NCBI GenBank assembly: GCA_963706575.1
Contig: CAVPNL010000001.1
Span: 384,001 to 448,000 of the forward strand
Length of the DNA stretch: 64,000 nucleotides
Origin: an uncultured delta proteobacterium
Lineage (GTDB): Bacteria > Desulfobacterota > Desulfobacteria > Desulfobacterales > JAHEIW01
Direction: 5' to 3'
The first letter of the stretch is position 1. Each line of letters begins with the position of its first letter. The position numbers and the translations under genes are program-made. Below are positions 1,565-18,632 of the stretch, in pieces. The notes beneath the pieces are model-generated. The model ran no database searches. It had not been told where the DNA came from and saw only the letters and a list, made by a program, of their open reading frames with translations.

Positions 1565-1625
1565 TGCTCGGCTGCCGCCCTTTCAGTCATACAATCCGGA
1601 TTCCTTATCCTCTGACTTTGAAATC

Positions 1626-3086
1626 TTATGCCCTTTTTTCAGTCCCATAGCGGTATCGCAGATCATCGGTCATCACGCAGCGTCGAATCTGGGTAAATAT
1701 TCTGGGCCGGGTGTGTCCTTCGCCATTGGTGGCGATATGAAATGAAACAAATCCTTCACCGGTAACGCCAACGCCGCCGAGGCCGCAGGCCCCATTTTTA
1801 ACAAATGAGGCACAGCGCGCTTTGCTGGCCATTTTCTGGATGTTGGTAATGCTGTTGGAATGGATGGCCATGGTGTGGCCCATATTTTGCTCGGCGGCCA
1901 ATGCCCATTCGATGGCCTGATCGACATTCGCACAACGGACCAGTGGCAGGACCGGCATAATCTGTTCGGTCCAAACCAGGGGATGATTTTGGTCGGTTTC
2001 CAGAATGACGATTTGGGCATCGTTTCCCACTTCCAGGCCGATGGAGTTGAGTATGAATCCCGGCGTTTTGCCGATAAAGTCCATATTAATAACGCCCGGT
2101 TCAGCCGGTCCTTTGACTTCCTTGAAGATATGTTTGAGCAGCTTTTTGCCCTGATCCGCAGAAATTTCGTAGGCGCCGTATTTTTTTAGATGTTCTTTAA
2201 GTTGTTCCGCCGCGGATTCAACGACAAAAATTTCCTTTTCACTGGCGCAGGCGGTACAATTTGAAAAGGAAGCGCCCTGGATAATGCATTTTGCTGCACG
2301 GTCCAGATCCGCTGTTTCGTCAACCACAACCGGAGGATTACCGGGCCCACCGGCGATAACGCGTTTGCCGGTTGAGGTCGCAAAGTCGACCACCCCATGG
2401 CCGCCGGTTACCGCAATCATGCCGACGTCTGGATGGGTCATCAGCTCTTGGGCGGAGGGCACCGTCGGTTCTTCCAGGCAGCAGATGCAATTTGGCGGTC
2501 CCCCGGCGTTTACGATGGCATGGTTCAGATCCCGAATGACGCGGGCGGATACCTTCTTAGTTTTGGGGTGAGGATTATCGATTACCGTGTTGCCGCCGGA
2601 CATCATCATAATGGCATTGAAAATTATGGTGGGAGCGCCGTTGGTGACCGGATTAACCGAGGCAATCACGCCGATCGGCAGTCGTTCTATAATGGTGACA
2701 CCCTTATCACCGGCATAGACCTCGGGAGTTAGATCCTCCATTCCCGGCACATTGCAGGCAGAGCGGACCTTGGCCACATTGTCGTCCGGTTTGCCCAGCC
2801 CGGTTTCTTCAAATTCCATGCGGCCGTATTCATCAGCATTGGCCAGACCGGTTTCGCGAATGGCCTGGATGAACCTCCGGCGGTCTTCAACCGGTGCATC
2901 CAACAGTTTTTTCTGAGCGCTGACAGCCGCATTTATGCAGGTTCCCATGTCCCGGAAAACGCCGTCGCCTGCAGCCGGCTTTTTTTTAGAGGGATTTTCC
3001 ATCTGATGGTCATCGATATTCTGCTCGGCAAGCTTTGCAATAACCTTTTCCACGATTTGGGTGACAACTTTTTCATCAAAATCCAT
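1626..3086 (-). CDS. eutE: BMC-associated CoA-acylating aldehyde dehydrogenase (EutE/PduP family) with N-terminal encapsulation peptide
   Basis: PIGVIASVNPVTN, GNTVIDNPHP, VTGGHGVV, AGGPGNPPVVVDETAD, catalytic C-A-S-E-K-E, EQIMPVLP, FVKNG, GEGFVSFHIA; N-terminus MDFDEKVVTQIVEKVIAKL is amphipathic. Confidence 0.9.
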   Translation of the reverse strand: MDFDEKVVTQIVEKVIAKLAEQNIDDHQMENPSKKKPAAGDGVFRDMGTCINAAVSAQKKLLDAPVEDRRRFIQAIRETGLANADEYGRMEFEETGLGKPDDNVAKVRSACNVPGMEDLTPEVYAGDKGVTIIERLPIGVIASVNPVTNGAPTIIFNAIMMMSGGNTVIDNPHPKTKKVSARVIRDLNHAIVNAGGPPNCICCLEEPTVPSAQELMTHPDVGMIAVTGGHGVVDFATSTGKRVIAGGPGNPPVVVDETADLDRAAKCIIQGASFSNCTACASEKEIFVVESAAEQLKEHLKKYGAYEISADQGKKLLKHIFKEVKGPAEPGVINMDFIGKTPGFILNSIGLEVGNDAQIVILETDQNHPLVWTEQIMPVLPLVRCANVDQAIEWALAAEQNMGHTMAIHSNSITNIQKMASKARCASFVKNGACGLGGVGVTGEGFVSFHIATNGEGHTRPRIFTQIRRCVMTDDLRYRYGTEKRA

Positions 3087-3140
3087 GTGGCTTCTCTTTC
3101 CTTTTAAATAAAAATCGCTTCGCGTCTCGTTACACAGAGA

Positions 3141-4064
3141 TCAGCTGTCGTTATAATAATCCTTATTTAGCGGATCATAATCTGCCAGCTCTTCTTTTTC
3201 CTCTGAAAAGAAATCCTGCCGTCTTCTGACACCGTCTTCAATTCTCGACAGGCGCTCGGCGGTGGCATCTTTGTCCGTGTATGCGATTTCATGAACCAGG
3301 GCACCTAAAAAGGTAATGATATGTGAAAAGGGATCAATAAATGAAAAGCCTTCCATATCGACAACGACATAGTGATCCGCCAGATTAATTATGGGTGACT
3401 TCAAGGCGTCGCTCAAGCAAACCACCTGGGCCTGATACTGTTTGGCGTACTCAATGATTTCAATGGCCCGCATGGGATAGCGCGGAAAGGCAATCACAAA
3501 CAACAGCAAGGACTTACCATGCACCGCGATGTGATCCAGATTGTCGGAGGTATAAGCCGTGTCGATCAGCACCCCTTCTTTGATTTTTTTTAAGAGATAT
3601 CCCAAATAAAAGGCCAGGGAGGCTGAGGCTTTATAGCCGACCACCAGGACCGATTCTGCCTGAAAAATCATTTGCGCAAGATTTTTTATCTCTGCTTCGG
3701 AAACCGATTTCACCATATTTTCCAGGTTCGTTACCGTGTTTTGGCTGTACGCGTTTAACGTGTTAGTTGTTTTGGTTTCCGGGTCAACTTTCAGCAGCCT
3801 TTCTACACTGGTCAATTCATCGCGCAGCATTCCCTTAAGATATTGCTCAAATTCACCGTAACCGTTGAAACCCAAATCCATCACGAAACGGGTGATGGTG
3901 GGCTCACTCACCTGGCATTTTTGAGCGATTTCCTTGGCGGTTGTCAAAAAAAGCCGTTTGTAATCCTCCATCATAAAGTCCGCCACCCGGCGTTTTTTGG
4001 GTGACAGGCTGGGACGAATGCGGACAATTTGTTCAAAAAGCTCTTTTCTGACGGTTTCAATCAT
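3141..4064 (-). CDS. MurR/RpiR family transcriptional regulator (HTH + SIS)
   Basis: LSPKKRRVADF...TAKEIAQKCQVSEPTITRFVMDLGFNGYGEF HTH; SIS domain IAFPRYP...LSDALKSPIINLAD. Confidence 0.9.
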   Translation of the reverse strand: MIETVRKELFEQIVRIRPSLSPKKRRVADFMMEDYKRLFLTTAKEIAQKCQVSEPTITRFVMDLGFNGYGEFEQYLKGMLRDELTSVERLLKVDPETKTTNTLNAYSQNTVTNLENMVKSVSEAEIKNLAQMIFQAESVLVVGYKASASLAFYLGYLLKKIKEGVLIDTAYTSDNLDHIAVHGKSLLLFVIAFPRYPMRAIEIIEYAKQYQAQVVCLSDALKSPIINLADHYVVVDMEGFSFIDPFSHIITFLGALVHEIAYTDKDATAERLSRIEDGVRRRQDFFSEEKEELADYDPLNKDYYNDS

Positions 4065-4087
4065 ATTTTAGCTCATTTTATATTTTT

Positions 4088-4708
4088 CTAGTGCTCACGC
4101 CCGGACAAGGCAGCCAGGGCTGACTCTGCCGCCAGTTTACCACTGAGGACATCCGATGGCTCACCGGCGAAGTAAACCCGGCCGCTGGCACCATATACCG
4201 TGACATGATTGAGGGTGATATTGGCTGCCTTTTCGGCTTCATTGGCAGCATATCCGGCATATCCGGCCGGGACGACTTCCAGAATATAAAGGGTTTCATC
4301 GCTTAGCGATAGACTGGCAGCCCGAAACCGGTTTACGATTTGGCTCATATGCGGATCGATTCGTTCGACGGTCTCGGTGGCTAGGATCTTGGGTTTAAGA
4401 CGGTCGGTTTCTTTGCAACCCAGATAATCCAGGATAACCTCGCCGGCCTGTTTCACATCGGCGGGCGAATCGGCGTGAACCTCCAGCATGCCATAGGTTC
4501 TTTCCACTACCAGCGCCCCGGGCCGCACATTGGACCTTTTCATGACCGCATCGGTGATTGAGTTAATCTCAATGCCCGGCGCGATTTCCACAAAAAGGGC
4601 AGCCTGACCGGTTATCGGATAATAGCCGCGTGAGGTCGAGCCGATATAACCGACCATCTGTTTTTGTAATTGATCGATGTAGGCAAATGCTCTAAGATCT
4701 ATCTTCAT
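4088..4708 (-). CDS. BMC shell protein, circularly permuted tandem domain (BMC-T dp, CcmP/CsoS1D-like)
   Basis: LRAFAYIDQLQKQ, ALFVEIAPGIEIN, VVERTYGMLEVH, LYILEVVPAGYAGYAANEAEKAA, GASGRVYFAG. Confidence 0.9.
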   Translation of the reverse strand: MKIDLRAFAYIDQLQKQMVGYIGSTSRGYYPITGQAALFVEIAPGIEINSITDAVMKRSNVRPGALVVERTYGMLEVHADSPADVKQAGEVILDYLGCKETDRLKPKILATETVERIDPHMSQIVNRFRAASLSLSDETLYILEVVPAGYAGYAANEAEKAANITLNHVTVYGASGRVYFAGEPSDVLSGKLAAESALAALSGREH

Positions 4709-4711
4709 AAT

Positions 4712-5917
4712 TTATATGCTCTTCAGCCATTCGCGTTTGTTCGGACAGACAGCCGTTATGGTGGTACAGGCTGCATTTCCCTGACAGGCGCACTCTTTGT
4801 CGCCGCCCTTGCTGAATCGGCCGTAACAGAAATCGGTAATGGGTATCGACGGTTGACAATCCATGATCAGTTGGCTGATCAGCCGGCCGATTACCGGGGC
4901 CAATCCGAAGCCGTGGCCGCTAAAGCCGGTGGCAAAAACAAAACCGGGGACTTCTTCTGCAAAGCCTAACACCGGCAGGGCGTCTGACATCTGGGCGATA
5001 AGGCCTGACCACATCCGAATCACGTTTAAATTCTTCAGTATCGGGAAATAATCAATAACCATCTCGGAAATCGCCGGCCCGATGAAATGAAACAGCGGCT
5101 TGCCTTCGCGATGGATGAATTGTTCGGTGCCGACAAATCCTCCCCAAAAGAAGGAACCGTGTCCGGTTTGCCGGCCGTAAAACAACCCTTTGGCATGTCC
5201 GACCATCTGCTGAAATAACGGAGGGTAGGGCTCAGTAATCAGGGCCTCGGAAAATACAGGTCGCATCGGCAAATCCAGGCCGGCCATGTTGGCCACTTTT
5301 CGTCCGGCTACACCGGCGGCATCCACCACCAGGTCAGTTTCAAAAATGTGCTTATCGGTTACCACACCGCTAATTTTACTTTTTTTTAGTCGAACCTCCA
5401 TGACTTCTTCATGCGTAAAAAACCGGGCCCCGAGATTCTTGGCCTTTTTAAAAAAGCCGTAAGTGACCAAAAACGGATTGACATGACCGTCCGTGGGGCA
5501 GAAACTGGCACCGAGAACCTTCTCTCCGATATGAGGATTAATTTCCAACACCTGTTTGCGATCCAGCATCGTCAGCTCGAGTCCAACAGTCTTTTGGTTT
5601 TCTACCGACTGACGCATGGTTTCCAGCTCTTCTTCTGAAGTGCAGAGCCGCAGATTGCCCGCCCTTACATATTCCACATCCATATCCAGTTCTTCATGGA
5701 GGTGGCCGTATATCTGTATGCTTTCCATGGCCAACGGCATTTCTTTAAGATTGCGTGCAGACTGGCGTACACCACCGCCATTGCTGCCAGATGCTTCTCC
5801 ACCGATGTCTGATTTTTCAATCACCACCGGTTTCAGGCCTTCTTTGGCCAGATTGTAAGCGATGGCGCAGCCCATCACGCCTCCGCCGATTATAACTGCA
5901 TCTGCTTTTTCAGGCAT
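4712..5917 (-). CDS. FAD-dependent amine oxidoreductase, sarcosine oxidase beta / MgdA / DadA-like catalytic subunit
   Basis: IIGGGVMG dinucleotide fold, ASGSNGGGVRQ, DGHVNP, RMWSG, ATGFSGHGFGLAPVIG; Cys-rich C-terminal tail. Confidence 0.85.
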   Translation of the reverse strand: MPEKADAVIIGGGVMGCAIAYNLAKEGLKPVVIEKSDIGGEASGSNGGGVRQSARNLKEMPLAMESIQIYGHLHEELDMDVEYVRAGNLRLCTSEEELETMRQSVENQKTVGLELTMLDRKQVLEINPHIGEKVLGASFCPTDGHVNPFLVTYGFFKKAKNLGARFFTHEEVMEVRLKKSKISGVVTDKHIFETDLVVDAAGVAGRKVANMAGLDLPMRPVFSEALITEPYPPLFQQMVGHAKGLFYGRQTGHGSFFWGGFVGTEQFIHREGKPLFHFIGPAISEMVIDYFPILKNLNVIRMWSGLIAQMSDALPVLGFAEEVPGFVFATGFSGHGFGLAPVIGRLISQLIMDCQPSIPITDFCYGRFSKGGDKECACQGNAACTTITAVCPNKREWLKSI

Positions 5918-6007
5918 CTGTTCTCCTGTTTGAAACGTCAGGAATTCAATATTCGCTATTCGTTATTCAAAATCTTTTAAAACAATTAAAGATGTGACAA
6001 TTAAAAA

Positions 6008-6688
6008 CTAGCTATTGGCAAATGCGGACAACCTCAGCGGCCGTACCGGCCCTCTGGCGGTTGTCGGCTCTATTTCGGCAAGGCTCAATCCCAATTCTTC
6101 AGCCAGGATCTGGCTTACAAGGCGCTGACAGGTTTGCCCCTGGCACAGCCCCATTCCGGCCCGGGTGATCCGTTTAATGCCGTTTAGGGTTTGCATGCCA
6201 TTGCGAATGGCGTCTTTAATTACGCCTTTGGTAATTTCTTCACAGCGGCATATGATCATATCATCGTCATCCGATGGGATTTGTCGGGATTCAGTCGATG
6301 TCTCCTTTTTACGATTCGGTTTATCCGGTTCACGCCCTTTCAGCTGTTTAATTCGTTCGACAACCCGATTGGCAAGGGCCTCGATGGCTTCTTCTGAGAA
6401 TTGGCCACCCGATATGCCCGGCGCATGGCTTTTCGATGGTCTGTTAGCAGAGGTAGGCCGGGTAGATCGGTGCATCTTTGCTTTTTTACCAGCCGGCTGT
6501 TTAGCCGGCTGAATTGCCGCAGTCAGCGATACGGCTCCTGGAGGCGTGGTTTTGATGTGGAGCTGATGTTCTTTAATCAAATCAGCGGCGGCGGCAGATA
6601 GAATTGCACCCTCGGGAACCTCAATTTCTTTGTTAGCGCCATCGATGATTTGTTTTACCTGCTGTGAGAATATGAATACACGGGCCAT
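6008..6688 (-). CDS. BFD-like [2Fe-2S] subunit of the dehydrogenase complex, fused to a BMC-type N-terminal domain and an internal encapsulation peptide
   Basis: C-terminal IICRCEEIT...KRITRAGMGLCQGQTC...RGPVRP (SoxA/HcnB/opine oxidase C-terminal module); internal FSEEAIEALANRVVERIKQLK helix between low-complexity linkers. Confidence 0.85.
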   Translation of the reverse strand: MARVFIFSQQVKQIIDGANKEIEVPEGAILSAAAADLIKEHQLHIKTTPPGAVSLTAAIQPAKQPAGKKAKMHRSTRPTSANRPSKSHAPGISGGQFSEEAIEALANRVVERIKQLKGREPDKPNRKKETSTESRQIPSDDDDMIICRCEEITKGVIKDAIRNGMQTLNGIKRITRAGMGLCQGQTCQRLVSQILAEELGLSLAEIEPTTARGPVRPLRLSAFANS

Positions 6689-6700
6689 TTAGTTCTCCCT

Positions 6701-7318
6701 TTATGGTGTTCGACCTTTTATCTTTCCAAGTGTTTCGACGACTTTTTGGGCTGCCGCCTGAATTTCCGACTCGGTGCCGGCCATATAGATGCGTCCGGAA
6801 GCCCCAAAAAAACGGATATCAACCAGCCGGACACCGCAATGCTTCTCAGCTTCATTGGCAGCGATGGATGAATAGGCCGCCGGTGTGACCTCCAGCAGAT
6901 AGACATCGTCACCGCCTAAAATCAACATTCCCTTGCTGTTGCGGTTGATAATCACCGCCTGGTATGGATCAATTTTATTGATGATGCTGGTTGCCAGAAC
7001 ACTGGGCGCCAGACGTTCTTCCTCTTTGAGCCCCAGCTCATCCAATATCATGCTGCCGGCATGCAGAACTTCTGCCTGTTCAAACGAGTGGATTTCCAGC
7101 ATGCCATAGCGTCTTTCAACAATCATTTCCCCGGGTTTTGAATTGGTGGCCTTGAGCGCAATATCCGACAAGCGGTTGATCTCGACGCCGGGGACGACCT
7201 CCACGAAAAGGGAAGCCATGCCCTCTACAGAAAGAAAACCTCGACAGGCGCTTGCAAACAAAGATGCAAACTGGGGTTGCAACCGATCCAGATAGCAATA
7301 GGCTCTGAGTTCAGCCAT
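6701..7318 (-). CDS. BMC shell protein, circularly permuted tandem domain (second BMC-T dp paralog)
   Basis: LRAYCYLDRLQPQFAS, SLFVEVVPGVEINR, IVERRYGMLEIHS, AANEAEK, GASGRIYMAG; collinear with 4088-4708. Confidence 0.9.
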   Translation of the reverse strand: MAELRAYCYLDRLQPQFASLFASACRGFLSVEGMASLFVEVVPGVEINRLSDIALKATNSKPGEMIVERRYGMLEIHSFEQAEVLHAGSMILDELGLKEEERLAPSVLATSIINKIDPYQAVIINRNSKGMLILGGDDVYLLEVTPAAYSSIAANEAEKHCGVRLVDIRFFGASGRIYMAGTESEIQAAAQKVVETLGKIKGRTP

Positions 7319-7360
7319 TCATTTGTCTCCTTGGTAGCAGTTTAATATCTCCATCTAATG

Positions 7361-7516
7361 TTGATAATCTCGTAAAAAGTTAGAAAAGCAGCTGTTTACG
7401 AGTGTGTTTTGTATTTGGTGTTTAGTGTTTAGTATTCTAACATGCCGATATAGCATCATCTATTTCATGCCAAACACCAAACACTTGATGAATTCGGCTT
7501 TTTACGAATTCATCAA
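7361..7516. repeat. REP/MITE-like element with terminal inverted repeats
   Basis: TTGATAATCTCGTAAAAAGT (7361-7380) and GCTTTTTACGAATTCATCAA (7497-7516) are imperfect reverse complements; inner arms TTTGGTGTTT / AAACACCAAA. Confidence 0.7.
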
Positions 7517-8349
7517 TGTTCAGTCTTAATAATTTGAATCGAATACTCCTTCGCTAAATCCCGGGCCAATGGTGTCACGATTCCCCCGGGTGCCAGCGTG
7601 ATTGCATTCTGGTTTTCAGCAACGGCCATATAAATTACTTTGGCTGTAACCAGTTTTATCGCACCGGTGCTATTTTCTGTTTGCGTTTTAATTGTTGCGG
7701 GTGAAGGGATGGGGACGGTTTTGGCTGGTTTAATACCGGATAACATTTTCTGAAATGTTGAATGTAATTGATCTGTTGGACAAAAAACCATCCCGAAGCT
7801 CTCAAGTTTTCTTAAAATTTGGTCGATTTCACTGCGCAGGGCTTCATTGGCAAGGATGTCACACACCAGAAATCCGTCGCTGGCAGCCAGAACCCGTTTG
7901 CCCTGCAGCAATGCGGTGAACACGATACCGGACTCTTGATCATCACAGATCAGGCTGGCGATTTTGGCGGCTGTTTTCAGACAGAAGGTGGGTAAAACCA
8001 GTATATCGGCCTTTTGCAAAGCCTTCTCCAACCCCGCCGGTTTGACCGTATCCAAAATACATTTGATGCCGGCGCCCTCTTTGACATCGGCGCCGCAAAC
8101 CCAGGAACGGGCAGATTCAACCGTATAGACGCTGGACCGGCGGGCGGTCTCTTCTATTTTTTGGATCTGTGCAAGTGCCTGATCCAATTTGCGGACACCG
8201 GCATGAAAAATATTTAATACCGCCGGCCCTTTGCCGGGGGAATCTACAGGTCGGGACGGCGGGTTGCGCGATGATCCTTTGGGCAAGCCGGTTTCGTTGA
8301 GAACCTGTCGAACGATTTTGCTGATTTCTTTTTTGAGCTTATCCGTCAT
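7513..8349 (-). CDS. BMC-associated flavoprotein-fold / PduM-like protein with N-terminal encapsulation peptide
   Basis: N-terminal MTDKLKKEISKIVRQVLNE; core ADILVLPTFCLKTAAKIASLICDD...ALLQGKRVLAASD; C-terminal KLVTAKVI...GIVTPLARDLAKEYSIQI domain typical of BMC accessory proteins. Confidence 0.7.
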   Translation of the reverse strand: MTDKLKKEISKIVRQVLNETGLPKGSSRNPPSRPVDSPGKGPAVLNIFHAGVRKLDQALAQIQKIEETARRSSVYTVESARSWVCGADVKEGAGIKCILDTVKPAGLEKALQKADILVLPTFCLKTAAKIASLICDDQESGIVFTALLQGKRVLAASDGFLVCDILANEALRSEIDQILRKLESFGMVFCPTDQLHSTFQKMLSGIKPAKTVPIPSPATIKTQTENSTGAIKLVTAKVIYMAVAENQNAITLAPGGIVTPLARDLAKEYSIQIIKTEH

Positions 8350-8388
8350 AATTTCCTTAAAATCTCCGGCAAACGGCTGCCGAATTCA

Positions 8389-9228
8389 TCACGCCTGCAT
8401 ATTGGCGGTCGCCGTATCCCGGCAGGATAACGCGATGCCGAAGGGGGTGATGAATTGAGGAATATGCGGCCGAAACGTTTCCATACCGATGTTTTCGGCG
8501 ACGATATCTGCAAAGCCCCGCAATTCACATGTTCCGCCCACCAGACAGACTTTTTCCAGATTATCGAATTCTGCTAAATAGGAAGCCGCGATACTGGCAA
8601 TTTTTTCGATAACCGGCTGAACGATTGCCAGAACTTCCCCGTTTTTCTGGGGATTCGTTTTTATTTTCTCAGCCTGTTCGTAGTTGATTTTTTGATTGCC
8701 CGCCAAAACGAGAGACAGATGAACACCTCCTGTGGCTTCGTCATTGGAATAAATGACTTCTCCATTTTTGATAACGGCAACTCCTGTTGTGCCGCCGCCC
8801 ACATCGACAATGGCCCCGTTTTCGATTTTAAGGACCTGATTGGCGGCTGTGGGCTCATCCAAGACATTGAGCACTTCCAAACCGACCCCCTCCAGGATAT
8901 GGGTGGTGGTTCTAAGGTTGGCGGATTCGGTCTGCGGCGGGTAGGATGTCGCGCCTCTTTCGATCGGCACAGGGCTGTGCTTTCTGATTTCTTCCATCAG
9001 CTCGCGGACGGTGTTCAAGGCCCCGACATAATCGACAATCATACCGCTGCGGGCGACTTCGGTCCGGCGCATGTTGGCCGCCCGCGGCGTGCCGGTTTCA
9101 TCGATAATGATGGCGATGGTTTTATAGGTTCCCACATCAACACCGGCATATAACTGCTCGGCACCGGCAAAATTCCAGTTGTCCGGCCGGTTTACAAGTT
9201 GGCTGAGCATGTTGATCGCATCCGTCAT
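8389..9228 (-). CDS. eutJ: EutJ (actin/Hsp70-like ATPase of BMC loci)
   Basis: GVDVGT, ATSYPP, VLDEPTAA, IVDVGGGTTG, DEATGGVHLSLVLAG, LVGGTC, ITPFGIA. Confidence 0.92.
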   Translation of the reverse strand: MTDAINMLSQLVNRPDNWNFAGAEQLYAGVDVGTYKTIAIIIDETGTPRAANMRRTEVARSGMIVDYVGALNTVRELMEEIRKHSPVPIERGATSYPPQTESANLRTTTHILEGVGLEVLNVLDEPTAANQVLKIENGAIVDVGGGTTGVAVIKNGEVIYSNDEATGGVHLSLVLAGNQKINYEQAEKIKTNPQKNGEVLAIVQPVIEKIASIAASYLAEFDNLEKVCLVGGTCELRGFADIVAENIGMETFRPHIPQFITPFGIALSCRDTATANMQA

Positions 9229-9779
9229 AAAATACTCCTGGAAATTTCATCAGTGGGCGAGGGGATTACCACATGGCTCAAAACCAACCCGGTGCCTTCC
9301 AGAATATCAATGCCGGCTTCTACCGCCGCCTCTACCGAATCCACACTGCCGGTTAAATATAAAAATGACTTTCCGCCCAGGCCGGTGGCGCAACGTATTT
9401 CAATGATTTCGACATTCGCCGCTTTAACTCCGGCATCGGCGGCCATAATCGAAGAGGCCACCGAGAATGTTTCAATAATTCCCAGTGAATCGACGCGTTT
9501 AATCCTGGTGGTCGCGGTGATGGCTGCAAATATGGAAGCATGCACATTGGGAATCACGAAATCATCTACCAGAAATTCCCCGGCCACCGCCTTGCCCACT
9601 TCATTTGCGCGTTCGATAGAGTCCACATCGCCGGAAACCATCACCATGTATTTTCCGGCGCAAATGGGTTGGGCGAAAACCAGCTCGACATCGGCCGCTT
9701 TCAGCATTTCATCGCCGGCCGCCACGCCCTTGGCGATACTGTTCAGTTCGATCATGGCAATTGCTTTGAGCTCTTCCAT
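9225..9779 (-). CDS. pduT: BMC-T shell protein PduT-like (Fe-S binding)
   Basis: IELNSIAKGVAAGDEMLKAA, PICAGKY (PduT pore cysteine motif), LGIIETFS, AADAGVKAA, GLGGK; adjacent to pduS. Confidence 0.9.
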   Translation of the reverse strand: MEELKAIAMIELNSIAKGVAAGDEMLKAADVELVFAQPICAGKYMVMVSGDVDSIERANEVGKAVAGEFLVDDFVIPNVHASIFAAITATTRIKRVDSLGIIETFSVASSIMAADAGVKAANVEIIEIRCATGLGGKSFLYLTGSVDSVEAAVEAGIDILEGTGLVLSHVVIPSPTDEISRSIL

Positions 9780-9791
9780 TTTTTATATCCG

Positions 9792-11129
9792 TCAGCGGGA
9801 TTGGATTACAATTTGTTTATCATCGACAGCTGATACGGTTCCATCGATACTGGCATGCACCCTGGCACCCAGGGCGCCTTCGGGAATTTCGCCGAGCAGG
9901 TCACCTTTTTGTACACGATCACCTTCGGCGACGACAGGAAGCGCGGGTTCTCCAAGATGCTGGTTTAAAAGAATTTTAACCTGTCTGATCTTGATTTCAT
10001 CTGGAAAAAACGCCGGATGGGTATCATATTTCATGACTTCCAGACGCTCCATCAGTCTTCGAAGAGGCACCTTACGGTTGTCGAAAAACGGCGACACCCG
10101 GTATGTTTCACGTTTGGCCTCGCGTTTAACGCCTTCTGCCAGGCATTTTTGCTTCAACACCGCGTTGATTTCCCGGGGCGAGAGCATCATGGGGCAGGCG
10201 AATTTTTCGCAAACGCCGCATTCCGAACAAATCAAAGCATCTTCCAGAATTTCTCCGTTCATTCCGGGCTTATACGCCAGGTGTCGCATGATCTTATGGG
10301 GCTCAAGCGAGTGCCCGATTAAATTGCGCGGGCAAAGATCCGTGCAGCGGGAGCACTGGGTACAGGCGGACTTGGCGATAAAGCGCATGCGTTCAATGTC
10401 TTTTTGTTTATCTCTGATGATATTGTGCTCCGGCGGCAATACAATAATGCCGCTCGTTGTTTTGGTTACCGGTTCCTGCTCACCAGTGAGCACCTTGCCC
10501 ATCATGGGGCCGCCCCTCACGATTCCATAATCGGGGATAAGGGAACCGCCGGCCAGCTGGATGACCTCGTCGACAGGTGTACCGATGGGCACCTTGCAGA
10601 CCATCGGGGTGCGAACCTCTCCGCAAACCGTTAGAAAGCGTTCGGTTACCGGCTGCTGCGTCATGGCGTGCGAGACATTTAACAGAGATTCAACATTGCA
10701 AACCACTGCCAGAACATTCAGCGGGATACCGCCCTCTGGGACAACGTGGCCGATGACTTCATTGACTAAAATAAACTCATCACCTGCCGGGTAATAGTCA
10801 TCCAGTTCATAAACATCGATATGAGGGGCGTAACCGTTGCCGGCAATTTTACTTTTAAGGATTTCAAGGGCCCGCTGGTGTTTTGACTTAACGCAAACCG
10901 TGCCTTTACCGGCATTGGTGCAATCCATTACGGTGCTCAGACCGTTTAAAATGAGATCGGTGTGATGTTCGAGCAGATGCGGATCACTTACGAGCAGCGG
11001 CTCACAGGAGGCTCCGTTTGCCAGTACCTGTTCGACTTCAAACTGCAGCTTCACGTGCGTCGGAAATCCGGCGCCCCCAGCACCAACAACACCGGCAGCC
11101 CGGATCTTATCGACAATATCTGCTCTCAT
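9792..11129 (-). CDS. pduS: PduS / RnfC-like flavo-iron-sulfur protein
   Basis: AGVVGAGGAGFPTHVK, CEPLL, YPAGDE, GGPMMG, CTQCSRCTDLCP and CSECGVCEKFACP 4Fe-4S motifs, QHLGEP...GARVHASIDG. Confidence 0.92.
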   Translation of the reverse strand: MRADIVDKIRAAGVVGAGGAGFPTHVKLQFEVEQVLANGASCEPLLVSDPHLLEHHTDLILNGLSTVMDCTNAGKGTVCVKSKHQRALEILKSKIAGNGYAPHIDVYELDDYYPAGDEFILVNEVIGHVVPEGGIPLNVLAVVCNVESLLNVSHAMTQQPVTERFLTVCGEVRTPMVCKVPIGTPVDEVIQLAGGSLIPDYGIVRGGPMMGKVLTGEQEPVTKTTSGIIVLPPEHNIIRDKQKDIERMRFIAKSACTQCSRCTDLCPRNLIGHSLEPHKIMRHLAYKPGMNGEILEDALICSECGVCEKFACPMMLSPREINAVLKQKCLAEGVKREAKRETYRVSPFFDNRKVPLRRLMERLEVMKYDTHPAFFPDEIKIRQVKILLNQHLGEPALPVVAEGDRVQKGDLLGEIPEGALGARVHASIDGTVSAVDDKQIVIQSR

Positions 11130-11419
11130 TTTTTCTTCACAGGCGCGTCGTCGACCAGTTCTAGATTATCAGCAATACCGATAACGACTGCGTCTATCGG
11201 GATCGGTGTCCCCTTGTTTAGTGCTTGCATGGCCGGTGCACCCCGGGTGACAATTACCATTTCACCGAATCCGGCGCCGACTTCATCGGCAGCAACCAGG
11301 ACGTTGCCGGCCGGTTTGAGGTCCTTTCCCAGAGGCTGGATGAACAATAGCCGTAACGCGGATATCGTATCCAGCTTCTTGGTGGACCAAACGTTTCCGA
11401 TAACTTTAGCAAGTAACAT
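11126..11419 (-). CDS. eutN: BMC vertex pentamer protein (EutN/CcmL family)
   Basis: MLLAKVIGNVWSTKK...VAADEVGAGFGEMVIVTRG...PIDAVVIGIAD. Confidence 0.95.
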   Translation of the reverse strand: MLLAKVIGNVWSTKKLDTISALRLLFIQPLGKDLKPAGNVLVAADEVGAGFGEMVIVTRGAPAMQALNKGTPIPIDAVVIGIADNLELVDDAPVKKK

Positions 11420-11469
11420 TCTGATGACCCTCCAGCCTCCGAGTAAACATTAACTTTCGATCGGGATTT

Positions 11470-11781
11470 CTATTTAAGATGTTCGGCTTCCTCGATGGCT
11501 TTAAGGCTGGCTTTGACATCAGCGATATCGCCAAAAATTCCGATCATGGTTACATGCTGCGGGCAAATCCCCTTCAGGTCGAAAACACGCACCGAAGCCG
11601 CTTTTTCGGCAACATCAGCGGCTGCGATCATGTCGACCACTTTTCCCTGAATGAGTCCAACAGCTGAATAAGGGACCTCAGCCTCGGATAAGATTTTTTT
11701 CCCGACGGCACCAACACGCTGTCTGAGAAATTCAAAGACTCCCGGGGAAGGATGGGAAATTAAATGGGTACTAAATGCCAT
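11470..11781 (-). CDS. grpU: Divergent BMC hexamer, GrpU-like (GxCPQ Fe-S motif)
   Basis: Likely start ATG 11781 after GAGAGG RBS; ISHPSPG...AVGLIQGKVVDMIAAADVAEKAA...KGICPQHVTMIGIFGD. Confidence 0.8.
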   Translation of the reverse strand: MAFSTHLISHPSPGVFEFLRQRVGAVGKKILSEAEVPYSAVGLIQGKVVDMIAAADVAEKAASVRVFDLKGICPQHVTMIGIFGDIADVKASLKAIEEAEHLK

Positions 11782-12024
11782 GATAGACCTCTCAGCATTC
11801 TGTTTTTTGCGAATCGTAAGCTGCGCTGCGGCGCTAAAATTATTGAATTCACCTTTTGATTCGGCATTTTCAGTGCTATTGATGACATGCGCTGATTTCA
11901 GCCGATTGCATGCAGACAAACTCCGGCCGATCTGGTCACTGGCCACGACACATTATTTTTCACGGCGTCACCGACCAAGCCGCACGCGCTTGCAGACCAA
12001 TCCGCTTCAGAACTTCCCGGAAAA

Positions 12025-12306
12025 TTATTCTTCGGCTTTCGGAATGGTATACTCGATGTCGCTGTGCGGTCTGGGGATAACGTGCACCGAAACCAGTTCG
12101 CCGACACGTTCGGCCGCTGCGCCACCGGCATCCGTGGCCGCCTTGACGGCACCGACGTCGCCGCGCACAAACACGGCAACCAGACCGCCGCCGACAAACT
12201 CTCTACCGACAAATCGTACTTTCGCTGCTTTTACCATTGCATCGGCGGCCTCAATCGCGCCGGCCAGACCTTTGGTTTCCACCATACCTAATGCTTGTTC
12301 AGCCAT
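12025..12306 (-). CDS. Major BMC hexamer shell protein (PduA/EutM-like)
   Basis: [24 protein letters not shown]...[23 protein letters not shown]...HVIPRPH; RBS CAGGAGG. Confidence 0.97.
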
Positions 12307-12330
12307 TCTTGTTTACCTCCTGATTATAGA

Positions 12331-12834
12331 TTAGCGTTTCAATCGAATTGCGCGGGCCGTCATAGACCAGTCTCTGGGGATTTCTATGATAACCGTTGCG
12401 GTTTGATCCATTTTTTTCGTTTGTTTGACTGCGGTAACGACCGCTTCTCCTAATTCCTGCCCTGCTCTATCCAGGGCGATCACGGTTTCTCCTTTTTCCG
12501 GCAAGGGCCGATATTCATAAGGCATCTCGAGCGCCGCCATATTATCCGGCAGGCTTTCATCGACAATAAAGATGGCCTGGCCGGGGCAGATGGGCAAACA
12601 GCTGCGGCAGCCCACACAGTTATCTTCCGTTAGCACGGGAGGGGTGGTGATATCCTCACCGACGGTAATGGCATCATATTTACAGCTGGCTTCACAGGGA
12701 TTGCACGGAATGTCTTCCAGACATTCGAGCACGGCCACCGCACCCATGCGGCGCCGCGTCTCCGACGGTATGCCTTTGCCGTTTTTTAGTTCTTTTTGCG
12801 AAAGGAATCCGGTTTTGGTTGAATCAGCGGCCAT
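12331..12834 (-). CDS. 2x[4Fe-4S] ferredoxin-like subunit of the dehydrogenase complex
   Basis: ECLEDIPCNPCEASC and CVGCRSCLPICPGQAI; MPYEYRPLP...LDRAG resembles the ferredoxin partner of sarcosine/proline dehydrogenase-like clusters. Confidence 0.85.
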   Translation of the reverse strand: MAADSTKTGFLSQKELKNGKGIPSETRRRMGAVAVLECLEDIPCNPCEASCKYDAITVGEDITTPPVLTEDNCVGCRSCLPICPGQAIFIVDESLPDNMAALEMPYEYRPLPEKGETVIALDRAGQELGEAVVTAVKQTKKMDQTATVIIEIPRDWSMTARAIRLKR

Positions 12835-13928
12835 TATGCTTGCGCTTTCATTGTGTCATTCAGGTATTGCTTGGCTTTGCCCCTGGCTTCTCCATGGCTG
12901 CCGCTGCGCAAACCGACCATGCTTTTAAGTTGCACTTCGCGCTGCTTTAAAAACTCAGGCTCATCCAGATAACCGAGTCTGCAGGCAATTGCCAGTCCGG
13001 CGATACGGCCTTCGATAATTGCCGTGCTGGCCTCTTCAATGCCGGATGCATCACCGGCCACGTAAACGCCATTAACAGATGTTTCCTGGTTCAGGTTATG
13101 TGACGGTACCTTGCCGCCTAGCACCGGAGAGTCGACGATCTGGCAGCCGGTCATTCTGAGCAACTGGTTCATGGGGTTGAGGCCGACGGCGATACATACC
13201 GTATCGACATCGAATTGTTTCTCCGTACCGTGTATCGGTTTCCAATTTTCATCCACTTCAATTATCGTGGCGCCCTCAACCCGTTCTGTGCCATGCGCTG
13301 CCTTAATCGTGTGTGACATAAAAAAAGGGACTCCGGTCCGGGCGATCTTGGCAGCGTGCACAGCGTAACCGCCGATTTCGGGTGCGGCATCGATAACGGC
13401 TGCAACCTGGCAGCCGGCTTGCAGCATCTGGTAGCTGACAATGACACCGACATTGCCCGATCCCACCATAAGAATGGCTTTGCCCGGTCGGATGCCATGG
13501 ATATTGGCCATGGTCTGAGCGGCGCCGGCGCCGATGACCCCCGGCAGGGTCCAGCCGGGGAAGGGGATCATGTTCTCTGATGCGCCGGTGGCCACCAGGG
13601 TACACTGGGCCTTTACGTGCTCAATGCGATCCCGGATCAGGACGTTGAGGGCGCCGTTTTCGTAGATACCTAAAACCACTGAATTCAAAGAAACTTCAAC
13701 GTTCAGTTCCCGGGCGTCGCTCAGGAAACTGTTGCCAATATCAAATCCGCGTTCCTTGGCGTGGTGCTCCTGGGAGCCGAAAAACTTGTGGATCTGTTTG
13801 AAAAGCTGACCGCCGGGGCGGTCGTTTTCATCATAGACGACAACCTCAACGCCGTATTTAGCAGCTTCGACGGCGGCTGCCAGTCCGGCGGGACCGGCGC
13901 CGACGCATACCATTTCACATCTTCTCAC
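12834..13928 (-). CDS. FAD/NAD(P)-binding oxidoreductase, sarcosine oxidase alpha N-terminal / HcnB-like subunit
   Basis: VGAGPAGLAAA, DENDRPGGQLFKQIHKFFG, ATGASE...FPGWTLPGV.GAGAAQ, GSGNVG, VYVAGDASGIEEA; no GcvT-like C-terminal domain. Confidence 0.88.
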   Translation of the reverse strand: MRRCEMVCVGAGPAGLAAAVEAAKYGVEVVVYDENDRPGGQLFKQIHKFFGSQEHHAKERGFDIGNSFLSDARELNVEVSLNSVVLGIYENGALNVLIRDRIEHVKAQCTLVATGASENMIPFPGWTLPGVIGAGAAQTMANIHGIRPGKAILMVGSGNVGVIVSYQMLQAGCQVAAVIDAAPEIGGYAVHAAKIARTGVPFFMSHTIKAAHGTERVEGATIIEVDENWKPIHGTEKQFDVDTVCIAVGLNPMNQLLRMTGCQIVDSPVLGGKVPSHNLNQETSVNGVYVAGDASGIEEASTAIIEGRIAGLAIACRLGYLDEPEFLKQREVQLKSMVGLRSGSHGEARGKAKQYLNDTMKAQA

Positions 13929-14248
13929 GGCTTGCCTCGTGATAAATCCGGCCCGTTGCCATGTTGCGTTTCAACCACCATGCCTTCTCTTAGCGGTTCG
14001 ATACACGTTCGAATATTGGGTATGCCGTCCACCACCATGATACAATCGGTGCAACGGCCAATGGCACAAAACACGCCCCGGGGCTCATTTCGTTTGGTGG
14101 TGTAACGGTGGATCAGCACCCCGTTGCTTCGCAGCGCAATCGCAATCGGTTCGCCGGCAAAACCTTCCATGGTTTTGCCGTCAAAGGTGAAGCGGACCTT
14201 GGGACCTTTTTCGAACACTCCCAGAATCGGATGTTCTTCAATGCGCAT
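13925..14248 (-). CDS. [2Fe-2S] subunit (Fer2_4, HcnA / sarcosine oxidase alpha N-terminus-like)
   Basis: MRIEEHPILG...FTFDGK...GEPIAIAL...PRGVFCAIGRCTDCIMVVDGIPNIRTC. Confidence 0.88.
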   Translation of the reverse strand: MRIEEHPILGVFEKGPKVRFTFDGKTMEGFAGEPIAIALRSNGVLIHRYTTKRNEPRGVFCAIGRCTDCIMVVDGIPNIRTCIEPLREGMVVETQHGNGPDLSRGKP

Positions 14249-14283
14249 TATCAAGAATCCAATAAAAATTTATATTCATCCGA

Positions 14284-15594
14284 CTAACAGAAACCAAACA
14301 TTTCACCAAAAGTATAATTGCTGCCCACCAGAGGGATACCGGTCATGGCGCAGGCTTCAAGGGTCAAGGACCGCAGGTCTTCTCTTTCCATGCTGTGCAA
14401 TTTGGTTTTGCCGGCGGCTTTGGCAATAATGACGGCTTCATTCGTCAGGGCCTGAATATAGTTCGCAACTCGTTGGGCGGCTTTTTCGATATCGAGCCGT
14501 TGTCTTAATTGAGGATCCTGGGTTCCGATCCCGTAGGCGCAGCGGCCTTCGTGACACCGTAAACAAACCACACATCCCATGGCAACCATGGCGCCGGTGC
14601 CGATGGCAACCGCATCCGCCCCGATGGCAATGGCTTTGGCAACATCGGCGCCGTCTTTGATGCCGCCTGAGACAATCAGGCTGACTTCGTCCTTCACACC
14701 CATGTCTTCCAAGGCGCGCACGGCCTGGACCAGTGCCGGCAGGGTCGGTATTCCCAGGTTGTTCGAAGCCACCACCGGCGCAGCGCCCGTGCCGGCTTCG
14801 CCACCGTCGATGACAATACCGTCTATGCCCGCTTTGACGGCAATTTTTACGTCTTCCCAGACTCTACCCGCGGCTATTTTTAAAAATATGGGAATCTGAC
14901 TGTCGGTAATGTCCCGCAGTTCTTCCATTTTCAGGCATAGATCATCGGCTCCGAAAATATCGCCGTGGCGGGGGTGGCTGTGTAAATCAATGCCTTCCGG
15001 CAGCTGCCGGAAAGCGGCGATTTCCTTGGTGATTTTGCTGGCCATCAAATGGCCGGCCAGACCCGGTTTGGCGCCGATGCCCACAATGATTTCGAGTGCA
15101 TCGGCAGCCTCGATGTTGCGCAGGGTAAATGCCATACGACTGGGCAGAATTTGGACCACCTGCTTATAGGAATTGTCTCTTTCTTCAGGCAGCAAGCCGC
15201 CCTCACCGTTGTTGATGGATGTGCCGACGATATCGGTGGCTTTTGCCAGCGCCGTTTTGGCTTCTTTGCTCAGCGCGCCGTAAGACATTCCGGAAATCAA
15301 AATAGGCGTTTCAACGACCAGCGGTTTTTTGGCAAAACGGGCTCCCAAGACGGTCTGGGTTTTGCAATCCTCGCGATAGGTGTCGATGGACATTCGCGTC
15401 AGCTGGGAGGGCAGAACCAGTAAATCGTCAAAATTGGGGTATTTTCTGGGGGTGCCGCAGCCACGGATGCGGTGTTTGCCCATCTGGGCCTTATATTTGA
15501 CTTCTGAAATCGATTCCGGGTTCCAGACCCCTCTTTGAACATCTTTGACCCGAGGCGTTTTATCGGTTGCTTTTTTTTCGTCTTTTTTTGCCAT
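14284..15594 (-). CDS. mgsC: FMN-binding glutamate synthase family protein, N-methylglutamate synthase subunit C (MgsC/GlxD-like)
   Basis: NFDDLL...YREDCKTQTVLGARFAKKPL...GMSYGALS, GAKPG.GHL, GIDLHSHPRH, IDGGEAGTG, SGGIKDGADVAKAIAIGAD, [3Fe-4S] motif CVVCLRCHEGRC; stand-alone size 436 aa. Confidence 0.8.
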   Translation of the reverse strand: MAKKDEKKATDKTPRVKDVQRGVWNPESISEVKYKAQMGKHRIRGCGTPRKYPNFDDLLVLPSQLTRMSIDTYREDCKTQTVLGARFAKKPLVVETPILISGMSYGALSKEAKTALAKATDIVGTSINNGEGGLLPEERDNSYKQVVQILPSRMAFTLRNIEAADALEIIVGIGAKPGLAGHLMASKITKEIAAFRQLPEGIDLHSHPRHGDIFGADDLCLKMEELRDITDSQIPIFLKIAAGRVWEDVKIAVKAGIDGIVIDGGEAGTGAAPVVASNNLGIPTLPALVQAVRALEDMGVKDEVSLIVSGGIKDGADVAKAIAIGADAVAIGTGAMVAMGCVVCLRCHEGRCAYGIGTQDPQLRQRLDIEKAAQRVANYIQALTNEAVIIAKAAGKTKLHSMEREDLRSLTLEACAMTGIPLVGSNYTFGEMFGFC

Positions 15595-16295
15595 TATTCC
15601 TGAGCCCTTTGTTTATGGGTTGGTTTAAAAAGGACGTATTCGTGGCGGCCATAAATTTTTGGAACAATGCTTTGAAACTCGTTGACATCCTGATCGATCC
15701 CGTATTTTTGAAACAGGGGCTTTAGCACCTTTTTTTCTTTTGGATCGATGGGAACGATGCGGACGTTGCCGCCCAGCTTTTTTTCGACCGCAGGATCCAT
15801 CACATGAATAACGCCGTCATACATGGATTCCCCGATACCTTCGCCGACTTCTCCTAAAACAACGATTCGGCCGCCGAGCGTCATCTTTCCGGTCCAGCGT
15901 CCGACACTGCCGCAGACAATCAGGGTGCCGCCTTTCATGCCCCAGCCGGCTCGGCTGCCGCTGTTGCCCTTGATCACCACAGTGCCGCCGACCATCGAAG
16001 GCGCCGCATTGCTGCCGGTGTTCATTTCGACGATGATTTCGCCGGCCGTCATGTTGTCGCCCGTATACCAGCCGGTATTTCCCTCCACCACAATGGTCGG
16101 CCCTTCAAGAAATCCGCCCGTGTAAAATCCGGTGCTGCCGTGAACGGTAATCGTTCCCTTTCCGATCAAGGCCGTGGCGAAGTTGTGCATGGAATGGGGG
16201 TTGTCAATTTCAATTTGGTCTTCGGTTTTAATCAATTCCTTAAGCTTGCGATTGACTTCTCGGGAGCTCATTTTTTTTAAATCTAAACGGACCAT
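15594..16295 (-). CDS. mgsB: GXGXG beta-helix protein, N-methylglutamate synthase subunit B (MgsB/GlxC-like)
   Basis: Likely start MVRLDLKKMSSREVN, overlapping the mgsA stop; repeated G-x-x-G-x-x-x-G rungs (GSTGFYTGG, GNTGWYTG, GNSGSRAG, GEVGEGIGESMY). Confidence 0.8.
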   Translation of the reverse strand: MVRLDLKKMSSREVNRKLKELIKTEDQIEIDNPHSMHNFATALIGKGTITVHGSTGFYTGGFLEGPTIVVEGNTGWYTGDNMTAGEIIVEMNTGSNAAPSMVGGTVVIKGNSGSRAGWGMKGGTLIVCGSVGRWTGKMTLGGRIVVLGEVGEGIGESMYDGVIHVMDPAVEKKLGGNVRIVPIDPKEKKVLKPLFQKYGIDQDVNEFQSIVPKIYGRHEYVLFKPTHKQRAQE

Positions 16296-17183: not shown

Positions 17184-17220
17184 AACACACCTCCCATTTT
17201 TGACGGCTTATCCGTGAATG

Positions 17221-18561: not shown

Positions 18562-18632
18562 ATTCCCCCCTTTCTGAGGAAGCATGAATGATGTTCATAT
18601 AATAAATATTTCTAATCAATTGGGACGAACTG

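Follow-up and report, generated by a model that had tools for sequence, protein, structure and literature searches.

A folate-domain-free, five-gene flavoprotein dehydrogenase as the candidate aldehyde-forming enzyme of MIC6-type bacterial microcompartments

What chemistry do bacterial microcompartments of the MIC6 type enclose? To address this question, we analyzed a 64,000-nucleotide stretch of DNA from an uncultured delta proteobacterium of the Desulfobacterales (GenBank assembly GCA_963706575.1, contig CAVPNL010000001.1, positions 384,001 to 448,000 of the forward strand; hereafter the window), in which the genes of a five-piece dehydrogenase are interleaved with shell genes. MIC6 was described by Sutter et al. 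(2021) from three loci of anaerobic Deltaproteobacteria, and its description in supplementary file 4 of that study assigns it no function (PMC8217296). An aldehyde dehydrogenase (AldDH) bearing an N-terminal peptide is listed there together with BMC-P, a pfam04324 2Fe-2S protein, and a pfam01266 oxidoreductase whose 30-aa tail contains four cysteines; the shell has two CcmP-like BMC-T proteins, and its PduT- and GrpU-type proteins are expected to hold Fe-S clusters, that of GrpU at the pore (PMC8217296). We found no functional assignment of MIC6 in the literature, within which subscription journals were poorly covered. Domain matches, gene order, and the gene neighborhoods of relatives lead us to consider it rather probable that a five-gene Fe-S flavoprotein dehydrogenase is the signature enzyme of MIC6 and frees an aldehyde from a glutamate-tagged amine.

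The minus strand of window positions 1 to 18585 is a MIC6-type microcompartment locus. One continuous string of genes runs from 18585 to the window's left edge, and we scanned its 22 open reading frames (ORFs) with Pfam and NCBIfam profiles (Table 1). Like the MIC6 loci of anaerobic Deltaproteobacteria as described in the catalogue, it encodes pfam04324 and pfam01266 proteins, the latter ending in a four-Cys tail of ∼30 aa, as well as an AldDH whose N terminus bears a peptide and a shell set of BMC-H, BMC-P, two CcmP-like BMC-T, and PduT- and GrpU-type proteins (PMC8217296). Two canonical BMC-H proteins are given in that description, whereas the window has one; most relatives have a second, between CcmP copy 1 and the BFD gene. 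The catalogue's description also does not include the genes for a glutamine synthetase (GS)-like ligase, an Mgs-like trio, and Fer2_4, Pyr_redox_2, and 2x[4Fe-4S] proteins that we find here (PMC8217296). Shell and accessory genes sit between and after two blocks of dehydrogenase genes.

How widely is this arrangement shared? The same gene order occurs in 12 of 21 genome loci, mostly labelled Desulfobacterales, and a metagenome scan with the MgsC-like protein as query returned 80 loci at 68 to 99% identity. Forty-four of these reach at least 2.6 kb past MgsC: 37 continue into shell genes, 5 into a contiguous, shell-less dehydrogenase, and 2 end after the 4Fe-4S gene. A GS-like gene lies upstream in every metagenome locus with at least 3.4 kb of upstream DNA (43/43) and beside the locus in all three genome relatives whose contig is long enough; Fer2 follows MgsC in 60 of 63 metagenome loci, and RidA is present in all eight related genome loci that extend past AldDH. 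The MIC6 gene arrangement is not chance. Of 301 species genomes sampled across the order, the source genome included, 18 had the shell-type DAO protein (73 to 100% identity), as did 12 of 155 genera, a patchy distribution in which incomplete genomes do not show absence. Contigs at least 99% alike were present in three sediment or estuary metagenome runs with three study codes (25, 60, and 13 contigs). The locus is thus not rare and may bear on organic nitrogen turnover in anoxic sediments.

Do the five pieces form one enzyme? The first-pass annotation, made from the sequence alone, had read five genes as parts of a single dehydrogenase, and our profile scans agree with the domains it named; the sole difference in coordinates is the start of piece 1, where the longest ORF begins at a TTG (14254) and the earlier call at an ATG (14248). 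Pieces 1, 2, and 4 align in order with the 996-position soxA model TIGR01372, at positions 13-100, 168-500, and 494-597. The Pyr_redox_2 piece matches 2gag_A (SoxA) at residues 130-446 and 1y56_A at 4.8e-11 in the Protein Data Bank (PDB), and its second dinucleotide-binding motif, GSGNVG, is invariant in 15 sequences; the eight cysteines of the 2x[4Fe-4S] piece are invariant across 17. The annotation had also placed the architecture nearer to HCN synthase and to opine and proline dehydrogenases than to sarcosine oxidase, a placement that the catalytic piece supports: the best solved relative of the DAO protein is 1y56_B (3e-56), the beta subunit of heterotetrameric sarcosine oxidase follows at 6e-26, and glycine oxidases rank between them (about 1e-30 to 1e-34). 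Against the soxB model TIGR01373 it scores 136 bits, below the cut-off of 529, and it is 28% identical to the genome's own SoxB. We take 1Y56 to be the L-proline dehydrogenase of Pyrococcus horikoshii, although the chains of that entry are labelled "sarcosine oxidase" and "hypothetical protein PH1363."

The same modules are joined in other ways elsewhere. In 14 metagenome loci the five pieces occur together with shell genes. In nine gut and rumen loci found by tblastn, Fer2, a PyrRedox-Fer4 fusion, BFD, and DAO are contiguous and the shell is absent; the fused frames measure ∼520 to 532 aa in six of them, with Pyr_redox_2 confirmed in the one scanned. In the shell-less loci L088 and L120, confirmed domains show Fer2_4, a PyrRedox-BFD fusion (∼490 aa), and a DAO-Fer4 fusion (572 aa), an arrangement present in five metagenome loci altogether. 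That the same modules are joined in three different ways strongly indicates that the five pieces work together. The set of DAO, Pyr_redox_2, and 2Fe-2S (Fer2_4, BFD) modules without a folate domain is the one that defines enzymes of the HcnABC, OoxAB, LhpBEF, and proline dehydrogenase type, and our five genes very likely encode a single enzyme of this HcnABC/opine oxidase/proline dehydrogenase type, judged on its domains, with the folate domain absent.

Could a folate-binding partner be supplied from elsewhere? The first-pass annotation had noted no GcvT domain and no SoxG or SoxD gene at the locus. Indeed, Pfam returned no match to GCV_T, SoxG, or SoxD in the 22 ORFs, and nothing there aligns with the GcvT part of the soxA model (positions 598-996). 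A six-frame search of the genome found seven GCV_T matches, which are spread over contigs C15, C6, and C4, the window's own contig, C1, having none; two weak SoxG matches, both inside GCV_T frames of C15; and a single SoxD match (C15:19285-19497). The C15 SoxA protein (972 aa) carries Fer2_4 (16-96), Pyr_redox_2 (166-427), SO_alpha_A3 (505-587), GCV_T (598-856), and GCV_T_C (884-964) and lies within a complete SoxB-SoxD-SoxA-SoxG-like operon (G000:C15:10001-30000, L123). The order Fer2_4, Pyr_redox_2, SO_alpha_A3 of SoxA is thus reproduced at our locus by three genes; unlike SoxBDAG, the locus lacks GCV_T and GCV_T_C (residues 598-964 of the genome's SoxA), SoxG, and SoxD. Because the GcvT-bearing SoxA occupies its own complete SoxBDAG-type operon, a borrowed GcvT partner—the case that would have undone the earlier proposal—is unlikely. 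With six of the genome's GCV_T domains as tblastn queries, neither the window nor locus L008 nor any of 101 related loci (1.14 Mb) gave a match; among five relatives with the locus, GCV_T was absent from the three identifiable locus contigs (G001:C15, G002:C5, and G003:C48), and relative G001 offered only a 404-aa frame of GcvT size and one weak GCV_T match. Since folate captures one-carbon units only, the absence of GcvT argues equally for an alkyl group larger than methyl. The neighbors of the C15 sox operon are electron transfer flavoprotein (ETF) genes, an MttB-family methyltransferase, a dimethylglycine dehydrogenase (DMGDH)-like DAO+GCV_T protein, and an RpiR/SIS regulator, and the region looks like a glycine betaine/sarcosine demethylation cluster.

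If the enzyme does not pass its product to folate, where does the product go? The AldDH of the locus passes its EutE-type model (Table 1) and has an amphipathic N terminus, MDFDEKVVTQIVEKVIAKLAEQ. Where the shell is lacking, a gene of the aldehyde:ferredoxin oxidoreductase (AOR) family (AFOR_N, AFOR_C) lies directly 3′ of the DAO-Fer4 gene in four of five loci (L088, L089, L091, and L120); none was found in the fifth, L117. The module is therefore tied to a CoA-acylating AldDH here and to AOR in shell-less relatives, which supports the earlier proposal of a free aldehyde as product: the tagging module described below pairs with two folate-less dehydrogenases and two aldehyde sinks. From these linkages, the dehydrogenase likely releases free aldehyde. 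It is conceivable, but tentative, that the tagging module works with interchangeable dehydrogenases and sinks, either in a shell with a CoA-acylating AldDH or shell-less with a tungsten AOR. The shell-less operon runs GS-like, MgsABC-like, Fer2_4, PyrRedox-BFD, DAO-2x4Fe-4S, AOR, with a ThiS-like gene next in L120 and a LivK-type ABC transporter in L088 and L120.

What, then, is oxidized? The genes upstream of the dehydrogenase encode a GS-like ligase and three adjacent proteins with the class-II amidotransferase, GXGXG, and FMN domains of glutamate synthase, and the order GS-MgsA-MgsB-MgsC recurs in relatives. The ligase stays below every curated cut-off: 320 bits against 429 for GlnA, 313 against 470 for type III GS, and about 257 against 650 for gamma-glutamylputrescine synthetase (GGputSyn). 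Aligned to solved GS, it has VQATY, with an 11-residue insertion, in place of FDGSS and GAFCP in place of the GYEAP flap, residues of GS that presumably bind and deprotonate ammonium. The ligase, as these scores and motifs suggest, is probably not an ordinary GS. Together with the MgsC-like protein, it is collinear with its homologs in shell-less L120 (65 and 75% identity end to end, respectively), and neither protein has shell-specific additions.

In the N-methylglutamate pathway, a GS-like ligase and a three-subunit glutamate synthase-like enzyme precede a dehydrogenase related to sarcosine oxidase, as presented in PMC5023235, and the dehydrogenase, MgdABCD, is there predicted to yield methylene-tetrahydrofolate. 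Our best guess, from gene content, is that the substrate of the dehydrogenase is an N-substituted glutamate, because a GS-like gene stands upstream of MgsC wherever the metagenome DNA reaches far enough and MgsA- and MgsB-like genes lie between the two. Metatranscriptome run X15 contributed 12 short contigs, which fell in 9 of 30 bins; one agrees base for base with a 245-base stretch of the GS-like gene, a match that does not show transcription. Runs with small shares among X10-X20 were left aside.

Which of these proteins would enter the shell? The BFD piece has an N-terminal extension of ∼135 aa that occurs only in shell loci and contains the amphipathic stretch FSEEAIEALANRVVERIKQL; nine gut-type BFD homologs align only to the C-terminal part of this protein, from residues 123-140. 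The DAO tail, C-x-C-x5-C-x7-C-P, is present in all six shell-type sequences; it is absent from three of four gut-type sequences, and the fourth has a different, Cys-free tail. Because shell-specific additions are found on BFD and DAO and none on the GS-like and MgsC proteins, and because the AldDH has its amphipathic N terminus, tagging would be cytosolic and the dehydrogenase and AldDH lumenal. A short motif is common to the N terminus of the BFD protein (..AILSAAAADLIKEHQLHI; 6008-6140) and the C terminus of the TIGR02536-family protein (..IVTPLARDLAKEYSIQI; 7513-7660), and may be a shell- or partner-binding element.

We propose the following route. The GS-like enzyme would use ATP to ligate a primary amine to glutamate, and the MgsABC-like trio, going by homology and gene order, would move the amine to a 2-oxoglutarate skeleton, giving an N-substituted glutamate; both enzymes, free of shell-specific extensions, are probably cytosolic. 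The dehydrogenase, with its DAO and FAD/NAD(P) subunits, two 2Fe-2S pieces, and a 2x[4Fe-4S] protein, would be recruited to the shell through the BFD extension and would oxidize the N-alkyl C-N bond; with the folate domain absent, the imine would hydrolyze to free aldehyde and glutamate. The EutE/PduP-type dehydrogenase would then convert the aldehyde to acyl-CoA. PduS, together with two shell proteins in which Fe-S clusters are expected, suggests that electrons are exported: they might pass along the enzyme's Fe-S chain and PduS and cross the shell at the Fe-S pores formed by the PduT- and GrpU-type proteins, a route that would replace the missing alcohol dehydrogenase. Taken as a whole—MIC6 as an amine organelle independent of O2 and B12, with ATP-driven tagging in the cytosol, an N-substituted glutamate crossing the shell, and Fe-S pores exporting the electrons of both lumenal oxidations—the scheme is a possibility that we put forward with some doubt.

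Several observations count against parts of this scheme. The aldehyde linkage above supports the step from missing folate capture to free aldehyde, but not the further step, also made in the first-pass annotation, from missing folate capture to the shell: nine gut or rumen loci and five shell-less Mgs-linked loci have neither GcvT nor a shell, so the absence of GcvT is a family trait and does not alone explain the shell. The DAO piece shares 41 to 46% identity with its three nearest gut/rumen-type sequences (30% with L029) and 34 to 38% with the DAO of shell-less Mgs-linked loci, which puts it nearer to the gut/rumen type; substrate specificity is therefore not transferable, and a proline-like substrate is possible. 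The binding protein of the tripartite ATP-independent periplasmic (TRAP) transporter in the locus keeps a conserved Arg (KFRVEG, against KLRVPN in SiaP) that binds carboxylates in such proteins, according to PMC4646407, which argues against a plain alkylamine such as ethylamine; the amine may, because of this residue, carry an acid group, as an omega-amino acid or taurine does. Neither a phosphotransacylase nor an alcohol dehydrogenase is among the 22 ORFs by Pfam and NCBIfam, the AldDH alone of the metabolosome core being present, and the recycling of CoA and NAD+ is unexplained. A PuuD-like GATase/Peptidase_C26 gene follows RidA in all three relatives scanned and fits a Puu-type route, and the frameshifts described below in the MgsA and DctP genes may mean that the pathway is broken in this strain.

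What else could the enzyme be? The closest nonshell homologs of the DAO piece (41-46%) adjoin ornithine cyclodeaminase (OCD)/mu-crystallin genes in four of the five gut loci scanned, and its best solved match is presumably a proline dehydrogenase (1y56_B, 3e-56, from P. horikoshii); together with the carboxylate-binding Arg of the TRAP protein, this would suit a dehydrogenase of L-proline, or of another cyclic or secondary amino acid, with glutamate semialdehyde/pyrroline-5-carboxylate as the shell aldehyde and the GS- and Mgs-like proteins handling nitrogen. We regard this as unlikely: no OCD or proline-related gene lies in the MIC6 locus, the GS-like gene in 43/43 loci and the ligase's lost ammonium-site motifs would go unexplained, and AOR after the shell-less module fits a free aldehyde, not a cyclic imine. 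A route of the Puu kind seems improbable too. Here a gamma-glutamyl diamine or amino alcohol would be oxidized at its distal amine or alcohol to a gamma-glutamyl aldehyde, AldDH would oxidize this further, and a PuuD-like hydrolase would then free glutamate; the Mgs-like trio, present wherever the DNA reaches, would have no role, the window has no PuuD-like gene, and the GGputSyn score (about 256 bits) is far below the 650-bit cut-off and below the scores of the GS models, even though GS-like ligase, DAO enzyme, AldDH, and GATase class-I/Peptidase_C26 (in 3/3 scanned relatives) make up the Puu set and the ligase reaches 4e-76 against the gamma-glutamylputrescine synthetase model.

Two further explanations we hold to be very improbable. 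One is the ordinary N-methylglutamate (methylamine) pathway, in which formaldehyde would go to folate through a GcvT-type protein elsewhere and free aldehyde would never be released. The genome does hold seven GCV_T matches, and our ligase hits a glutamate-methylamine ligase of solved structure at 1.1e-62, but it scores higher with true GS (252 bits) than with methylamine ligase (215 bits), the GcvT-bearing SoxA belongs to its own operon beside MttB, DMGDH-like, and ETF genes, G001 has no more than its 404-aa frame and one weak match, and GCV_T was not found in the 101 related loci. Without a freed aldehyde, neither the shell nor a CoA-acylating AldDH would serve a purpose; this AldDH and the TRAP Arg, as sequence features, weakly oppose methylamine as the substrate. 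The other sees in the GS- and Mgs-like proteins a split GS/glutamate synthase (GOGAT) pair that assimilates ammonia from an unrelated shell pathway, with the Fe-S flavoprotein pieces as electron donor. That all three Mgs-like domains are glutamate synthase domains and that the Pyr_redox_2 piece has weak local GltD-type matches would agree with it; the GltD matches, however, span only the first 40 to 50 residues while the soxA match extends over residues 3-336, the ammonium-site motifs of GS are missing from the ligase, and the locus would be left without an aldehyde-forming enzyme. Oxidation of an N-substituted glutamate with release of its aldehyde remains our preferred reading.

How does the proposed system compare with known ones? 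The N-methylglutamate pathway of aerobic methylotrophs (GmaS, MgsABC, and MgdABCD) shows the same three-module logic and gene neighborhood, as far as PMC5023235 presents it. Unlike MgdABCD as given there, the dehydrogenase here lacks GcvT, SoxG, and SoxD and has added 2Fe-2S and 2x[4Fe-4S] pieces; unlike in that pathway, shell genes interrupt its gene set, the enzyme is coupled to a CoA-acylating AldDH within a shell, and the host is an anaerobe. Our literature search, again with poor coverage of subscription journals, found no N-alkylglutamate pathway beyond methylamine and no anaerobic N-methylglutamate pathway. The archaeal dye-linked L-proline dehydrogenase that we take 1Y56 to represent gives the best DAO match and likewise has no folate domain; unlike it, the enzyme here has a glutamate-tagging and shell context, extra BFD and 2x[4Fe-4S] subunits, and a four-Cys tail, and probably acts on something other than proline. 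HcnABC cyanide synthase, OoxAB opine oxidase, and LhpBEF D-hydroxyproline dehydrogenase combine, on the architectures we assume for them, Fer2_4, Pyr_redox_2 (with BFD), and DAO, the subunit logic of the PyrRedox-BFD fusion in L088 and L120; unlike these three, our enzyme has a separate 2x[4Fe-4S] protein, is split over five genes, and is linked to shell and Mgs-like genes.

If the proposed role is correct, MIC6, a type with an AldDH but no known aldehyde-forming enzyme, would gain that enzyme and a testable pathway, and would be the first microcompartment with an Fe-S flavoprotein amine dehydrogenase as its signature enzyme. The glutamate-mediated amine pathway of aerobic methylotrophs would extend, independent of folate, to anaerobic sediment bacteria, and the locus would provide a natural system in which to study how electrons cross a protein shell.

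Table 1. Genes of the MIC6-type locus in the window, with the domain evidence for each
Feature	Position	Strand	Evidence
GS-like ligase, proposed gamma-glutamyl-amine synthetase	17221..18585	-	Gln-synt_C 1.2e-102; N-terminal domain below Pfam cut-off
MgsA-like class-II amidotransferase, frameshift-split	16283..17183	-	GATase_6/7 in C-terminal fragment
MgsB-like GXGXG subunit	15594..16358	-	GXGXG 1e-21
MgsC-like FMN subunit, split glutamate synthase-like enzyme	14284..15594	-	Glu_synthase 2.7e-100
Dehydrogenase piece 1, 2Fe-2S, HcnA/SoxA N-terminus-like	13925..14254	-	Fer2_4 2.7e-28
Dehydrogenase piece 2, FAD/NAD(P)-binding subunit	12834..13928	-	Pyr_redox_2 8e-30
Dehydrogenase piece 3, 2x[4Fe-4S] protein	12331..12834	-	Fer4_7 and related models; SoxA counterpart absent
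BMC-H shell hexamer	12025..12306	-	BMC 2e-27
GrpU-type BMC-H	11470..11946	-	Partial BMC domain; contains GICPQ; true start probably a later Met
BMC-P pentamer	11126..11419	-	EutN_CcmL 9.5e-26
PduS-like FMN/Fe-S protein	9792..11129	-	Complex1_51K, Fer4_17, RnfC_N, and SLBB domains
PduT-type BMC-T	9225..9779	-	Two BMC domains 3e-45; eut_PduT 6.2e-39; Cys in PICAGK
EutJ-like	8389..9228	-	PRK15080 2.4e-92, above curated cut-off
TIGR02536-family accessory protein	7513..8349	-	7.8e-14, below cut-off; no Pfam match
CcmP-like BMC-T copy 1	6701..7318	-	NF053796 1.4e-70
Dehydrogenase piece 4, BFD 2Fe-2S/SO_alpha_A3	6008..6688	-	Fer2_BFD and SO_alpha_A3 at residues 145-224
Dehydrogenase piece 5, catalytic DAO-family flavoprotein, C-terminal four-Cys tail	4712..5917	-	DAO 8.7e-72
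CcmP-like BMC-T copy 2	4088..4708	-	NF053796 3.4e-70
RpiR/SIS regulator	3141..4064	-	HTH_6 and SIS
CoA-acylating aldehyde dehydrogenase, EutE/PduP type	1626..3086	-	PRK15398 1.2e-157, 525 bits vs cut-off 403
RidA-family imine/enamine deaminase	1145..1564	-	Ribonuc_L-PSP 6.3e-27
TRAP binding protein DctP	2..706	-	DctP 4.5e-40; runs on left of window, then DctQ and DctM (L008)

Are the genes of the locus intact? The MgsA-like gene is split into an N-terminal fragment (16899-17183; 94 aa, starting VCGIAG) and a C-terminal one (16283-17005; 240 aa) by one extra base near 16905 relative to the related loci L044, L047, and L045; three metagenome runs with three study codes have one contig each across this site, and all three contigs likewise lack that base. 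The signal peptide of DctP is out of frame with the mature part (window 700-900) and in frame in five relatives, and metagenome contigs have single-base insertions at 773 and 877. Both genes are intact in related strains, and the two frameshifts are either assembly errors or strain-specific lesions.

Do the transporter, the regulator, or the flanking genes name the substrate? The best solved relatives of the transporter's DctP are lactate-, pyruvate-, and sialic acid-type binding proteins at only 70 to 81 bits, which name no ligand; 4uab, which we take to be an ethanolamine binder, scores 66 bits. LivK-type transporters are used by one MIC6 locus and by shell-less loci. The RpiR/SIS regulator was rejected as a pointer to sugar phosphates, as a 27%-identical RpiR regulator adjoins the genome's SoxBDAG operon. 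Upstream of the GS-like gene, a divergent ApbA/PanE-like reductase gene (18942-19880, plus strand) is conserved in no fewer than 12 metagenome loci (59 to 70% identity); the context beyond it differs between loci and gives no clue to the substrate. Farther on, a minus-strand cluster (22382-30319) encodes an acyl-CoA dehydrogenase, two short-chain dehydrogenases/reductases, two MaoC-type dehydratases, a thiolase, a carboxyltransferase, and a family III CoA-transferase, and is not conserved beside the locus in relatives. An Rfam scan of window positions 1-20000 at E values up to 1 detected no riboswitch to name a ligand; its only three matches were sub-threshold and of eukaryote type. Sigma-70-like promoter sites are no commoner than in shuffled sequences (20 against a mean of 20.9), and the sigma-54 consensus was not found upstream of the GS-like gene, its matches in the window being rarer than in shuffles (24 against a mean of 36).

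Relatives carry further genes around these modules. Several related loci (L010, L012-L015, and L018) extend beyond AldDH, with genes for a second AldDH paralog (56 to 60%), a GATase class-I/Peptidase_C26 protein, an Old Yellow Enzyme (OYE)-family reductase, a second RidA, and a cyclophilin-like protein whose match to Cucumopine_C is weak. The gut and rumen operon (L021-L029; Lachnospiraceae, Treponema, Ruminococcus, and others) consists of Fer2_4, PyrRedox-4Fe-4S, a short BFD, and DAO; beside the OCD/mu-crystallin genes (four of five loci scanned), its neighbors are amino acid permeases or PotABCD-like transporters, with a Peptidase_C26 gene in L022, and the operon is possibly linked to ornithine or proline. 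Within the window, the intergenic stretch between the TIGR02536-family gene and CcmP copy 1 (7319-7516) holds a 12-pair hairpin; it is also where most joints and loose ends fall in the metagenome runs, and it appears to vary between strains.

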